NCBI GenBank assembly: GCA_951406725.2
Contig: OX597824.1
Span: 73,842,001-73,906,000 of the forward strand
Length of the DNA: 64,000 nucleotides
Direction of reading: 5' to 3'
Origin: Octopus vulgaris
Lineage: Eukaryota
Below are positions 2,935 through 54,188 of this stretch, one piece after another; position 1 is the stretch's first letter; the number at the start of each line of letters is the position of its first letter. The position numbers and the translations under genes were made by a program. The notes under the pieces are model-generated. The model saw only the letters and a list, made by a program, of their open reading frames with translations, was not told the DNA's origin and did no database searches.

Positions 2935-3892
2935 CCTTTCTACTATAAGCACAAGGCCTGAAATTCGAGGGAGGGGGTAAATCGCTTACATCGACCCCAG
3001 TGTGTAATTGGTATTTATTTAATTGATCCCGAAAGGATGAAAGGCAAAATGTACCTCGGTGAAATTTGAACTCAGAACGTTGAGACAGACAAAATACTGC
3101 TAAGCATTTTGCCCGGCGTACTAACGATTCTTTTCACCTACTATAGGCACAAGGGGTGATATTTGGAGGAGGGGGATAGGCAATTTCATCGATCCCAGTG
3201 TTTTACTGGTACTTAATTTATCAATCCCGAAAGGATGAAAGGCAAAGTCGACCTCGGCGGAATTTGAACTCAGAACGTAACGGCAAACAAAATACCTATT
3301 TCTTTACTACCCACAAGGGGCTAAACACAGAGAGGACAAACACGGACAGACAAAAGGATTAAGTCGATTATATCGACCCCAGTGCGTAACTGGTACTTAA
3401 TTTATCGACCCCGAAGGGATGAAAGGCAAAGTCGACCTCGGCGGAATTTGAACTCCGAACGCAGCGGCAGACGAAATACCTATTTCTTTACTACCCACAA
3501 GGGGCTAAACACAGAGAGGACAAACAAGGACAGACAAAAGGATTAAGTCGATTATATCGACCCCAGTGCGTAACTGGTACTTAATTTATCGACCCCGAAG
3601 GGATGAAAGGTAAAGTCGACCCCGGCGGAATTTGTACTCCGAACGTAGCGACAGACGAAATACCTATTTCTTTACTACCCACAAGGGGCTAAACATAGAG
3701 GGGACAAACAAGGACAGACATAGGTATTAAGTCGATTACATCGATCCCAGTGCGTAGCTGGTACTAATTTAATCGACCCCGAAAGGATGAAAGGCAAAGT
3801 CGACCTCGGCGGAATTTGAACTCAGAACGTAGCGGCAGACGAAATACCGCTAAGCATTTCGCCCAGCGTGGTAATGATTCTGCTGGTTCGCT
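2935..3892 (-). mobile_element. Head-to-tail array of Meta-domain SINE units (about 5)
   Basis: Repeated gaaaggatgaaaggcaaagtcgacctcggcggaatttgaactc; the core units recur at about 181-bp spacing. Confidence 0.85.
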
Positions 3893-20911: not shown

Positions 20912-21498
20912 TTCTTATTTCTTTATTGTCCACAAGGGGCTAAACATAGAGAGGACAAACAAGGACAGACAAAGGGATTAAGCCGATTATATCGACCCCA
21001 GTGTGTAACTGGTATTTAATTTATCGACCCCGAAAGGATGAAAGGCAAAGTCGACCTCGGCGGAATTTGAACTCAGAACGCAACGCCAGACGAAATACCT
21101 ATTTTTTTACTACCCACAAACACAGAGGGGACAAACAAGGACAGACAAAGTCGATTATATCGACCACAGTGCGTAACTGGTACTTAATTTATCGACCCCG
21201 AAAGGATGAAAGACAAAGTCGACCTCGGCGGAATTTGAACTCAGAACGTAACGGCAGACGAAATACCTATTTCTTTACTACCCACAAGGGGCTAAACACA
21301 GAGGGGACAAACAAGAACAGACAAACGGATTAAGTCGATTATATCGACCCTAGATCGTAACTGGTACTTATTTAATCGACCCCGGAAGGATGAAAGGCAA
21401 AGTCGACCTCGGCGGAATTTGAACTCAGAACGTAGCGGCAGACGATATACGGCTACGCATTTCGCCCGGCGTGTAAACGTTTCTGCCAGCTCGCCGCC
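20912..21498 (-). mobile_element. Meta-domain SINE trimer
   Basis: Three units joined at gacgaaatacc|tattt; only the distal unit has the tRNA head. Confidence 0.85.
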
Positions 21499-33783: not shown

Positions 33784-33965
33784 TACATTTATATATAAAT
33801 ACGGAATCTAATGCGCTTAGCTTAGTTTTTCCTTGGGGCTGGCCAGATTGGAGCAATCTCAAGATTAATCAGCCGAAATTGCGTGGATGATCCGGTTCTT
33901 GACTGAAGATTGAAGGCTTCGAATGTCCCGTCCGTGTTTTTTGCGTCGTCTTCTAAATGTCCCAG

Positions 33966-34729: not shown

Positions 34730-35268
34730 AAAGACATAAAATTTAATTAAATTAAAACAGATGGACACATTAGTACAATTTTACCTAAAATCTCCAAGAA
34801 GGTAAGAAGATAGACAGAGAACATGCTGTCTTCACTTGAGCTTAGAGTAGCTTCTAAGCTGAAGTACAACATCGATATTCTTCCCTGTGTTTGTGAAATT
34901 TTTGTATCTCTGCCGTAAGGTTTAACTTCCACACGCGCCAGCTTAATTCAATTCGTCCTTAGTCGAAAGACACCTGTTGTTATGTCCTGTTATTATTTTT
35001 ATTGTATTCTTTTTATTTCATTTATATAACATTGTTTCTGTATACATTCGATGCTTTCTCCAAGTTTTTCCTTGGGGCTGGCCAGATAGGAGCAATCTCA
35101 AGAATGATCAGCCGAAATTGCGAGAATAATCTGGTTCTTGACTGAAGATAGAAAACTTCGAATGACCCGTCGTTGTTTTCTTTGTATCGTCTATCTCGAT
35201 GTTTTGTTGTCCCTTTTTATATCACCTAGTTGTCCGGATGTTTTGCATTCTTGTCCCATTTTGTATTT

Positions 35269-35396
<128 letters not shown>

Positions 35397-35402
35397 GTAA
35401 AT

Positions 35403-35914
35403 ATATATTTACTTCTTTGTATATTTTTCCCTCACGGGCTATTCTTTACTGGAAAGCAATACTCTAGCATTGCATTACTAATTTATTGAAACTTCTTCAC
35501 CGTTCTCGTTCTGTTAGCGTTTCGGCGTTTCAGTCGAGTGTATTGGCATTAATGTGGTAACATCTGAAATGTTGTCGTGGTATATGTTTGGCTGATGAAG
35601 ATAGATCAAGTATATGTGGGCAGGCATATCTTGAAACATCTGAAACCGGCGCCGGTCCCACGTTATCCTTTTCTAGGTATTTCATCTTTCAGATGTTCTC
35701 CCTGGAGGTAAGACAATTTTTTTCAAGTTTGTTGCACTCACGCATTTTTGCTAGTACATACGCGGTGAAGCTATACATTAGCGTTGTATTATTACGTTCG
35801 CTATTTCCAGTAAATATCGGTACTTCGTTGTGCCATATATTTACTTCTTTGTATATTTTTCCCTCACGGGCTATTCTTTACTGGAAAGCAATACTCTAGT
35901 ATTGCATTACTAAT
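35403..35914 (+). mobile_element. Retrozyme/pLTR-like unit: 432-bp period with about 80-bp terminal direct repeat
   Basis: atatatttacttctttg...cattactaat at 35403-35482 and 35835-35914; (TA)n on both sides; contains a canonical HHR. Confidence 0.65.
35587..35661 (+). ncRNA. Type-I hammerhead ribozyme, canonical core
   Basis: tTGG-CTGATGA-AGAT..tcaag.atatg[loop]catatcttga..ATCT-GAAA-CCGGCGCCGG-TC-CCAc; GUC triplet ends at 35657. Confidence 0.75.
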
Positions 35915-36044
35915 ATATATATATATATATATATACATCTCTTTATACACATATCTATATGCTTATTGAATTCAAAATTTTGAAAGCGTGGTTTCTTGAA
36001 TATTCGGAGTCTCCGCCATCGAAAACATAGGAATCCGCTGAAAA

Positions 36045-43772: not shown

Positions 43773-45354
43773 TGTTGTGTGGACGCCCCCAGACGATGAA
43801 GTAGGCTAGCTCAGTACGTAGATATAGAGGGAGAAGTTTAGACGTCGAGAGTAGCGTTGAGTAGCGGTGAGAGTCGAGCAGATTAGAGTTGAGTAGCAGG
43901 CATCCGAACGTGCGACATAACAGTGGCGATGATGATTTCGTAGCTCACACAGCCACTGTGTAGTATTGCGATATAACAGTGGTGACGAGGTTTCGAATTG
44001 TACCGAAATGGAAGAGTTACTGAAAGCAGTTGTAAAACAACAAGAGCAGCAGCAGCAGCAACTACAGAAGTTAACAGAATTGTTCCTGCAGTCGAGAAAT
44101 ACGACAGATTCATTTTCAGCAGATGGTGTTGCAAATTCCATCGAAGAATTTCATAACAATCCGGATGAAGGATACAATGAATCTCTTCGGGACAGATTTA
44201 ATGGAAGGATTCGACCTGAGGGATCTATCATTGAATACATTATGTAACAAGGTGAATGCGTCACAGTCTGTGTCAGAAAAAGCATCGGAAAAAATGAAAT
44301 TAAAATTGAAAAAGATGTACCCTAATATTTTTTCGAAAGAGCTCGGTATGTGTAAAAAATTAAATTAAGTTTGAGTTGAAAGAAAATGCGGTGCCGGTGT
44401 TCAAACCGAAAAGGAATGTACCTTTTGCGGCGTTAAATCAAGTTGAGAAGGAATTAAAAAGATTGGTAGACATGGAAGTAATTGAAAAAGTAGACTACTC
44501 TGAGTGGGCGGCTCCTACGGTACACATAGAAAAGAAGGTCAATGAGGTAAGAGTATGTACGGACTTCTCAACTGGTCTTAATGATTGTTTAAAAAATTAC
44601 AATTATCCTCTTCCAAACCCAGAAGAAATATTTGCTAAGTGCAATGGTGGGAAAATTTTTTCCAAGCTGGATTTGTCAGAGGCCTACCTCCAACTACTGG
44701 TAGATGAAGAATGTGCTAAAATATTAACAATCAATACTCATAAAGGTCTGTACCGTTTCAAAAGACTTCCATTTGGGGGTAAAGGTCGCACCAACATTTC
44801 AGCAAGTGATGGATACTATGCTAGCAGACTGTGGGTTCGCGGTTCCATACTTGGATGACATATTGATCAAAAGTGAATTTTTTAAACATAGGTGACAAAG
44901 TGTATTTTAAAATATATAGTAACGGAAAACAGGACTGGGAACAAGGAAGCATAACTGGACGTCTTGGTAACGTGATGTACATAGTAAAAGGACCAAAATA
45001 TGAACACAGAAGGCATTTAAACCAATTTTAAAAAAAATATACCAAAAATCAAGAGAGGCAAGAAGAACCAATGGATTTATGGTATGATTTGTTCCAGGTC
45101 CTAGAACCACAAGCAAAAGTGTTCGAGGTCCCAGAACCACAAGCAAAAGCAGAACCAACACGTAGGTCGAACAGGAAGAGAAAACCTACAGAAATGATGG
45201 AAATTAACACTAAGAGAAAAAGATATGCCAGTTTCTCACCGTAGAAATAAAATTGATAAATTCGGATTTAAAAAACTCAAAAGGGGGAGGTGTTGTGTGG
45301 GCGCCCTCAGACAATGAAGTAGACTAGCCCAATACGTAGATATAGAGGGAGAAG

Positions 45355-46397: not shown

Positions 46398-46450
46398 TAT
46401 ATTGGTCTTCATACTGATTTTTATAACTTTTTCTGTTTTTTTTTTTTCAG

Positions 46451-47300
46451 GTGCAACGTCTAACGAGTACGTGGATGACCAATGCTTTATCCGTGGAATA
46501 TTTTATAAACATTTTTTCAATTCCTTTAATACATTTCATAAGCGAAGTTTTTGGTCGTAAAGTTGGCTTGCTGTTGTCTCTGAGCGGTACACTTGGAAAA
46601 GTCATAGTAATTACAGCAACGATGTTCTTCAAACTACCTTTGGACGTCTTGGTTTGGGCATGCGCTATCAATGGCATCACCGGAGGAACTGGTGGCTTCA
46701 TCACTGGTATAGTTTCGCACATTTCCGATAAAAGCAACCTCGGAAAATCCTGCTTCGATCATTTTTCAAGAATTCTGGCTTTAGCCATTGGAGTGTCCGG
46801 CATTTTTGCTGTTATCTTCGGTTATATAATGACTTCCTTTAGCAGAATCATCGTGTCTCTGTGTTTGGTGTATTTAGCTTTAGTCTGTGCAATCATTATT
46901 ATATTTCGTTTTGAGGAATCACAAAACAGAAACGCCAGCCAAATGAGTCCAACAATGAAATGTTCCTTTCGGGATTTATGGAATGTAGTGCCTATCAGAA
47001 AATTTTTATTGTTGTTCTTTTTCTTGTCAATGGCAGCCTTTAGTTATTTGCCTGCTGGAGGACAGACTATCTTTGTCACGCAGTTTTTTATTAACAAATC
47101 AGTTAACGCCTGCAACAACACCACGATCGGAATATACTTAGGTATTTTCGCTTTCAGCTTTTACATCACTCACTTCTTCGCAAGCATGGCAAAAATGGAG
47201 AATATAAGCAGTAATGTGATAATCGTTGGATGTCTTCTACTCGGGTTCGTCAGCAGTATTGTTCTTTCTTTCACAATGAGAATGTTCTTTTATCAAGCAG
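46451..47300 (+). CDS. SLC46-like transporter, coding exon 2 (850 bp)
   Basis: ttttttcag|GTG...caagcag|gtataa; several hydrophobic helices; MFS motif-A-like ISEVFGRK; GITGG; SHISD. Confidence 0.85.
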
Positions 47301-47539
47301 GTATAAACTCCTTTATTTCTTTCGCTTTCCCCCTTTTATCTTTCGTTTCTTCTTTTTTCTTTTTTCGTTTCTTTTATTTTCCTTTTTTTCTCACGTTGGC
47401 AGTGTTGTTCTTTTTTTAAATTCATAGTATTTTTTAAAAATCTTCTTCTGTAACTTTACAAAAATACAATAATCCGCATCATTAGTATTTAATCCAAGGT
47501 TACTAGGATGAAGTTTGCATCTCTATTTAAGACTTTTAA

Positions 47540-52543: not shown

Positions 52544-53851
52544 AAGTAAAAGTCGTACACTACTGTCGGTGTACCCGACTATCCCCTCTCCTAAAATTTC
52601 TGGCCCTGTGCCAAAATTTGAAATTATTATCAAGTAAAAGTCGTGCACTAGGGTCGCTGTACCCGACTATCCCCTCTCCTAAAATTGCTGGCCTTGTGCC
52701 AAAATTTGAAATTATTATCAAGTAGAAGTCGTGCACTAGGGTCGGTGTACCAGACTATCCCCTCTCCTAACATTGCTGGCCTTGTGACAAAATTTGAAAT
52801 TATTATCAAGTAAAAGTCGTGCACTAGGGTCGCTGTACCCGACTATCCCCTCTCCTAAAATTTCTGGCCTTGTGCCAAAATTTGAAATTATCAAGTAAAA
52901 GTCGTGCACTAGGGGCTGTACCCGACTATCCCCTCTCCTAAAATTGCTGGCCTTGTGCCAAAATTTGAAATTATTATCAAGTAAAAGTTGTGCACTAGGG
53001 TCGATGTACCCGACTGTCCCCTCTCCTAAAATTTCTGGCCTTGTGCCAAAATTTGAAATTATTACCAAGTAAAAGTCGTGCACTAGGGTCGCTGTACCCG
53101 ACTATCCCCTCTCCTAAAATTTCTGGCCTTGTGCCAAAATTTGAAATTATTATCAAGTAAAAGTCGTGCACTAGGGTCGGTGTAACGACTGTCCCCTCTC
53201 CTAAAATTGCTGGCCTTGTGCCAAAATTTGAAATTATTATCAAGTAAAAGTCGTGCATTAGGGTCGGTGTACCCGACTATCCCCTCTCCTAAAATTTCTG
53301 GCCTTGTGCCAAAATTTGAAATTATCAAGTAAAAGTCGTGCACTAGGGTCGGTGTACCCGACTATCCTCTCTCCTAAAATTGCTGGCCTTGTGCCAAAAT
53401 TTGAAATTTTTATCAAGTAAAAGTCGTGCACTAGGGTCGGTGTACCTGACTATCTCCTCTCCTAAAATTTCTGGCCTTGTGCCAAAATTTGAAATTATTA
53501 TCAAGTAAAAGTCGTGCATTAGGGTCGGTGTACCCGACTATCCCCTCTCCTAAAATTTCTGGCCTTGTGCCAAAATTTGAAATTATCAAGTAAAAGTCGT
53601 GCACTAGGGTCGGTGTACCCGACTATCCTCTCTCCTAAAATTGCTGGCCTTGTGCCAAAATTTGAAATTTTTATCAAGTAAAAGTCGTGCACTAGGGTCG
53701 GTGTACCTGACTATCTCCTCTCCTAAAATTTCTGGCCTTGTGCCAAAATTTGAAATTATTATCAAGTAAAAGTCGTGCACTAGGGTCGCTGTACCCGACT
53801 GTCCCCTCTCCTAAAATTGCTGGCCCTGTACCAAAATTTGAAATTATTATT
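52544..53851 (+). repeat. About 88-bp minisatellite (about 15 units) derived from a Meta-SINE 3' part
   Basis: Unit aagtaaaagtcgtgcactagggtcggtgtacccgactatcccctctcctaaaatttctggccttgtgccaaaatttgaaattattatc; follows the SINE head at 52431. Confidence 0.9.
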
Positions 53852-54188
53852 AAGGTGGTGACTGGCAGAATCGTTTGCACGCTGGGCAAAATGCTCAGCG
53901 GCATTTTTAAAAAGTTATATCCACAGGTTTTCTAAAGAAATTACAGCACTGACAGTTACGAAGATTCGTATACGAATACATCTGTATAAACAATTTGATC
54001 GAATAAAGGAATGGGTGCATATGCATATTTCACGAGTTATTGCTCCTTTTTCAGCACCACATCCAAACCATTAACTATCCACGAACGCATTGTAGAGATA
54101 AATTTTTAAAAAATTATCGAATCACACTGCTAACACACGTAGGACACACAGCATTGACTTACAAGCCTTTAATATACTTGTTTGCTAA

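Follow-up and report, generated by a model that had tools for sequence, protein, structure and literature searches.

An ORF-less hammerhead repeat family dispersed in Octopus vulgaris, with insertion ends of the PLE type

Hammerhead repeats and PLE insertions

Metazoan non-LTR retrozymes and their circular RNAs have been described, with Penelope-like elements (PLEs) as candidate mobilisers, and hammerhead cutting followed by monomer ligation has been demonstrated for other retrozymes (Cervera & de la Pena 2020, PMC7229834). The retrozyme unit spans approximately 170–400 nt (350–390 bp in mussel; PMC7229834) and reaches 972 nt in Li et al. 2026 (10.64898/2026.07.22.740005), who argued for a PLE origin of retrozymes from co-occurrence and from pLTR homology and phylogeny in vertebrates, and where only one of nine predicted Xenopus retrozyme dimers was cleaved in vitro. 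Concerning PLEs, inverted 5' copies and a tail at one end belong to the standard anatomy of their insertions (PMC8557442; PMC3846280). For PAc, reverse transcription has two internal start sites, both downstream of the hammerhead, and what separates them corresponds to the genomic tail; PAc acts on both strands of AT-rich DNA, is a predicted dimer, and its hammerhead mutants still inserted in vitro (PMC11167929). Additionally, circle templates were proposed earlier for more-than-unit PLE copies (PMC4209133), and Penelope and Chlamys-3 have an intron in the 5' UTR that crosses the pLTR boundary (PMC8557442). Both the movement of retrozymes and the origin of inverted, tailed, more-than-unit PLE insertions have been called open (PMC7229834, PMC8557442, PMC11167929).

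The repeat family presented here, found through one copy in a 64-kb stretch of O. vulgaris DNA (the window), joins the two questions, as its hammerhead unit, which has no ORF, shows the end signature of PLEs. The retrozyme class and its PLE link are already known, and what this family appears to add, from its genomic copies, is unusually direct support. Our literature searches returned no study of cephalopod retrozymes and none that gives tail or inversion evidence for retrozymes, although Repbase or Dfam may catalogue the family; the words "ribozyme" and "retrozyme" are absent from the main text of an octopus repeat annotation (PMC13282606).

The window copy and its hammerhead

The initial annotation had reported an 80-bp direct repeat 432 bp apart, and both copies were located with a single mismatch between them (35468 against 35900; Table 1). 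Its left boundary at 35403 had to be given up, since a short inverted arm extends further left and meets the long arm in a perfect palindrome. The copy follows the end rule of its family, with a 516-nt arm ending at E2, a 22-nt inverted arm ending at E1 and a palindromic junction.

Table 1. Features of the window copy (positions in the 64-kb window).
Feature	Position	Strand	Remarks
Left (TA)n target	35341..35390	.	Preceded by (CA)n at 35272-35338
Short inverted arm, ending at priming site E1 (unit 1-22)	35385..35406 (approximate)	-	20/22 matches; AT-rich and weak alone, arm predicted by the family rule
Head-to-head junction of the arms, 20-nt palindrome	35395..35414	.	Perfect
Long arm, 1.19 units, ending at priming site E2	35403..35918	+	
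Single 432-nt unit	35403..35834	+	Folding beats 100/100 shuffles, z -4.44
Repeat copy 1	35403..35482	+	Contains internal E1 (~35424) and most of the tail
3' splice-site-like pyrimidine tract and AG (35516-35517)	35503..35517	+	AG missing in subfamilies B and E
11-bp long-range stem around the hammerhead	35559..35697	+	35559-35569 with 35687-35697; 97.5% of cells paired, no double change
Type I hammerhead (predicted)	35579..35668	+	Helix I 35579-35591 / 35658-35668; predicted cut after C35657
Hammerhead parts	35592..35656	+	Core 35592-35598; long helix II 35599-35641; GAAA 35642-35645; palindromic helix III 35645-35656
5' splice-site-like motif (predicted), GT at 35708	35705..35713	+	Present in subfamilies A-F
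11-bp clamp stem enclosing E1 and two small hairpins	35804..35887	+	35804-35814 with 35877-35887; predicted recognition element
Repeat copy 2	35835..35914	+	
Optional 62-nt tail	35857..35918	+	E1 (35856) to E2 (~35918)
Right (TA)n target	35915..35936	.	

The CTGATGA (at 35592), stem II, GAAA, 12-nt palindromic stem III and GUC (35655-35657) all lie where they had been annotated, and the palindrome has a single occurrence in the window. Stem I, previously given as 3 bp, is longer: a 2-nt bulge separates those 3 bp from 3 further ones, after which come a 3x3 internal loop and a closing GG/CC. In subfamilies B and F helix I is an unbroken 6 bp, and in the window copy a private A>G at 35662 converts one of its pairs to a wobble. 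Rfam returned no hammerhead match in the element, whose helix II is long, and for the whole window the best 150 of 241 Rfam matches were nearly all microRNA models on simple repeats. A pattern of the hammerhead core gave 270 exact matches genome-wide, against 0 for the control, and the core is intact in 177 of 192 passes. In an alignment of 40 diverse copies 95.1% of helix cells are paired, compared with 29–46% in slid controls. Changes on both sides of a pair were found in 72 cells, a count as high as in 0 of 500 shuffles, with compensatory changes in helices I and II; this covariation counts sequences, is inflated by relatedness and mostly represents a few subfamily-level events. It is thus confirmed that the hammerhead motif is not due to chance. 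Among the copies, helix III has 6, 8, 10 or 12 nt and is palindromic in most of them (in one common variant, found in 13 of 133 regions, the loop is not palindromic), and the cut triplet is GUC or GUA.

Self-cleavage at 35657/35658 and a circle joined at this position are predictions, and the active fold of the window copy would cost 3.7 kcal/mol in the folding model. A hammerhead blocked within the circle was considered, as the active fold costs 2.6–14.2 kcal/mol in 14 of 15 units, and set aside as too model-dependent. One outlier hammerhead (L186) was removed, as it belongs to another family. The TA-rich flanks of the fetched loci hold roughly 15–20 further sequence-distinct type I hammerhead families (counted by eye), most of them with a long helix II and a palindromic helix III (e.g., L245, L040, L137, L089, L060, L026, L072, L200, L069).

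The clamp stem is kept in 27 aligned copies, almost without double changes, and also in distant subfamilies. Its self-complementary pattern occurs about 490 times genome-wide (491 and 484 strand hits; control 0), and the stem may be the recognition element. Read round the unit, E1 and E2 fall between the splice-like donor and acceptor, that is, inside a predicted intron. On a tentative and rather doubtful view, only unspliced RNA could then be copied; if true, such copying would explain intron retention in PLEs. Searching for a spliced genomic copy gave 0 matches. Eight runs (contigs, with RNA status guessed) contained no joint at the splice-like sites and are uninformative on expression, splicing and circles. 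A stop of the RT at the 5' splice-like site (9 ends seen, 4.0 expected) is not claimed, as the site had been picked post hoc among 432 windows; among 30 additional loci, 4 ends lay at unit 301-310, two of them already known.

Copies, insertion ends and the PLEs of the genome

Searching the 2.8-Gb genome with the unit led to 1,489 first-look candidates (40 scored, 82 matches), and searches with two diverged copies to 1,576 and 1,382, sets that may overlap the first. The family is dispersed over many contigs (the window copy lies on contig C11), mostly as insertions of 0.05–2.7 units. The 14 natural full periods measure 427–437 nt and are 62–97% identical, the oldest subfamily (62–69% identical) having the same period and the same ends. 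Partial tandems are common, with 75 of 205 arms in a biased sample exceeding one unit, and there are no long arrays among the top matches. These candidates, together with seamless arms of up to 2.66 units, uphold the earlier view of a retrozyme-like, multi-copy repeat arising from more-than-unit cDNA. A look-up of the unit sequence gave no match. The unit contains no ORF, its longest stop-free run round the circle being 112 codons, and in 60 loci the longest frame was never PLE-like, in line with the lack of coding similarity noted before. Across about 300 family loci no arm exits the unit into an ORF, and every long arm re-enters the hammerhead within one period. Several nearly identical loci on contig C31 (L035, L036, L041, L048, L274, L288) share one insertion, consistent with segmental duplication, and it was counted once.

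The ends were surveyed in 224 loci, representing 143 distinct elements. Outer 3' ends fall at two sites in 205 of 220 cases, namely E1 at about unit 22 (120 ends) and E2 at about unit 84 (85 ends), 62 nt apart, and TA adjoins 180 of these 205 mapped ends, while 5' ends are scattered. Head-to-head pairs with their 3' ends outward were found in 78 of the 143 elements; 66 pairs could be classified (the other 12 could not), and 65 of them combine E1 with E2, one is E1+E1 and none is E2+E2. Some searches demanded an end, but loci picked by the hammerhead alone give the same end pattern. Genome-wide, the end patterns gave 157 E1 and 118 E2 matches, and among the 98 and 76 listed ones (contigs C1-C15), which overlap the earlier sample, 23 of 23 outward pairs are mixed. 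Target-site duplications are unreadable inside the (TA)n flanks. The permuted endpoints proposed as a check on the retrozyme reading are thus seen at the 5' side, whereas the 3' ends are fixed at two priming sites of PLE type; fixed 3' ends speak of the mobilising machinery and do not thereby refute a retrozyme. In windows chosen post hoc, 5' ends cluster at unit 104-112 (10 against 2.8 expected) and 383-392 (14 against 5.2), just upstream of predicted hairpins, and these are possible RT pause sites. The lengths of E1 arms peak at exactly one unit, a peak that TA-like microhomology could explain and to which we give no weight.

At least four PLE families with intact RT and GIY-YIG ORFs reside in the same genome, as judged from 150 scored candidates out of 6,136 GIY-YIG ones. 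In three local families the copies have two end sites against (TA)n, and their tails measure about 37, 26 and 30 nt. The tail is present on 4 of 15 ends in family 1; family 2 has 14 tailed and 13 untailed ends out of 30, with two tandem and one unresolved, and family 3 has two ends. Upstream of the ends, two local families also have a hammerhead of variant form and a donor resembling a splice site. Family 2 (L337-L366), with 76 of 76 scored proteins at 100% identity and many open frames of 775 codons, is by its sequences apparently a very recent burst. In one inverted PLE pair (L346/L347) the tail occurs on one arm only. The commonest PLE (L081-L096) has a separate ORF upstream of its 765-aa RT/EN ORF, a hammerhead with U3-A8 replacing C3-G8, and a promoter-like region in which CCAAT-like and CRE-like boxes recur.

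Comparison of the unit with 108 PLE loci, covering the at least four intact families, by blastn and profile search revealed no homology apart from nested copies. An ordinary pLTR beside a PLE ORF, the alternative raised by the initial annotation, is therefore not supported, as there is also no ORF contiguous with the repeat in about 300 family loci; with no homologous partner among these loci, the PLE link rests on insertion anatomy. PLE fragments near copies are set apart by TA repeats or unrelated DNA, and two candidate chimeric insertions of PLE plus unit (L231, L304) were discarded on finding unrelated DNA in between.

The family shares with the non-LTR retrozymes (PMC7229834) a short ORF-less unit (427–437 nt) that contains a type I hammerhead and is poor in GC, a copy number in the thousands and tandem continuity. 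It differs from them in occurring mostly as dispersed insertions with no long arrays found, in its long helix II and palindromic helix III of up to 12 nt, in circles that are here predicted, and in ends that are mapped and follow the PLE two-site inverted rule. It is a variant of the metazoan non-LTR retrozymes and behaves like one, although it is only partly a member, since cleavage and circles are predictions and no long arrays were found. The plant LTR retrozyme (type III hammerhead in LTRs, PBS/PPT, 4-bp TSD, as defined in 10.64898/2026.07.22.740005) was rejected, since the unit has type I topology and repeats circularly. With Li et al. 2026 our work has in common the conclusion of PLE-dependent hammerhead repeats. 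Their main text includes no insertion-end analysis and no mollusc, for the octopus family no pLTR homologue was found among the 108 PLE loci, and their definition demands two complete hammerheads in succession, which among the octopus arms would admit only the longest.

Like the EN+ PLEs and PAc (PMC8557442, PMC3846280, PMC11167929, PMC4209133), the family displays two fixed 3' ends, 5' truncation, an inverted 5' copy, a tail at one end and AT-rich or microsatellite targets, as well as two RT starts downstream of the hammerhead, palindromic junctions and a splice site upstream of the ends. It departs from them in the absence of an ORF, in the one-of-each pairing counted on 66 pairs and in more-than-unit copying of a 430-nt unit, and its 62-nt tail exceeds both the published 30–40 bp and the 26–37 nt of the local PLEs. 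Non-autonomous PLEs of Chlamys such as MRC1 (PMC8557442) are a further parallel; those elements have pLTRs and head-to-tail copies, are similar in their 3' ends to the autonomous partners and are, as described there, mostly without canonical hammerheads.

Template, mobilisation and alternative readings

We consider it probable that the element is a copy of an old, dispersed, ORF-less hammerhead family, likely mobilised by PLEs in trans and probably from a circular monomer RNA. That the family is non-autonomous and PLE-mobilised is very likely judging from its copies, and a circle is the likely template. More-than-unit copies would be transcribed, cut by the hammerhead after C35657, probably as a double hammerhead via the palindromic helix III, and the monomer ligated. 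A PLE RT/GIY-YIG protein, likely a dimer, would then nick both strands of a TA microsatellite and prime one cDNA at E1 and one at E2, the end pattern being observed and the enzymology presumed after PAc (PMC11167929); the counted one-of-each pairing rule fits a dimer priming twice. The length of each cDNA would vary, copying going on beyond the cut and circling the unit as many as the observed 2.66 times, and the two cDNA ends may join via short complementarity, giving the inverted arms and the tail on one side that are seen.

Concerning the template, arms cross the predicted cut seamlessly up to three times, the longest (L326, 2.66 units) being followed by arms of 2.11, 2.06 and 1.96 units. 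In 94 arms with overlap (14,979 nt) the two repeats differ by 4.5% and belong to one subfamily. Variants private to one arm (private, that is, among 227 sampled arms) occur in both of its repeats 7 times against 0.29 expected, one of the seven lying in a gappy stretch. Differences between repeat 1 and repeat 2 are nearly symmetric (113 against 97, with three alignment-artefact sites dropped). The seamless arms and duplicated private variants favour, from sequence comparison, a model in which one closed monomer is copied repeatedly over one with linear tandem sources.

A PLE-mobilised unit with a linear template, either uncleaved multimeric read-through RNA or a cleaved monomer with end-to-end template jumps, is in our judgement unlikely. 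Jumping on one monomer would likewise duplicate private variants, PAc used unprocessed RNA in vitro (PMC11167929), and three arms (L324, L307, L310) have 2–3 oriented differences in common, a pattern expected of a tandem linear source. Moreover, of 28 long arms, 14 terminate at the second passage between +25 and -10 relative to the cut (39 rows, with 2 query sources and 9 edge rows dropped). However, later windows lose 13 of 36, a similar share, and 5' ends show no excess at the cut over 188 arms (3 seen, 3.8 expected), so an RT stop at the hammerhead cut was rejected on the pooled analysis. At the cut the junctions show no seam, no long array was found, and 5'-truncating copying of linear RNA would shorten the units, yet the period survived 35% divergence. 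That the copies are stumps, i.e., solo or partial-tandem pLTRs of an autonomous PLE missed by our searches, is very improbable: the terminal features are all like those of PLE pLTRs (PMC8557442, PMC3846280) and the PLE searches scored top candidates only, but in about 300 family loci long arms always return to the hammerhead instead of exiting into an ORF, and even the oldest subfamily keeps period and ends. Satellite-like amplification of a decayed pLTR by unequal crossover or slippage has been proposed for multimers (10.64898/2026.07.22.740005), and segmental duplicates do exist on contig C31. Against this scarcely credible origin stand the many contigs, the individual 5' junctions, the fixed 3' ends, the E1+E2 inverted pairs and the maintained hammerhead structure; it is largely refuted by the end statistics.

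Returning to the circular template, a bolder extension can be offered, which is tentative and rather doubtful. The family may be a viroid-sized circular RNA lineage with no coding parent, persisting through 35% divergence by rolling-circle target-primed RT, with a PLE dimer priming once per site and a structural clamp, not homology, borrowing intact PLE proteins. If true, the thousands of insertions would be a genomic record of a rolling-circle reaction. Intact, very young PLE ORFs are present in the same genome, and a 430-nt RNA with four candidate proteins makes the circle-template model testable in the existing in vitro assay.

The window also bears other features. Two 117-nt copies of another repeat (33824-33940 and 35063-35179), 89% alike, contain CTGAAGA...CGAA, a degenerate motif like that of a hammerhead. 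A microsatellite lies close to the end of each copy, and one of the two sits immediately left of the element. Partial arrays of a SINE-like repeat, of 184 bp and 168 bp, are located at 3188-3848 and 20916-21450. A frame of 164 codons (44364-44858) resembles an LTR-retrotransposon RT fragment, and one of 330 codons (46427-47419) a multi-pass membrane transporter. Finally, 15 copies of an 88-bp unit form an array at 52544-53854.
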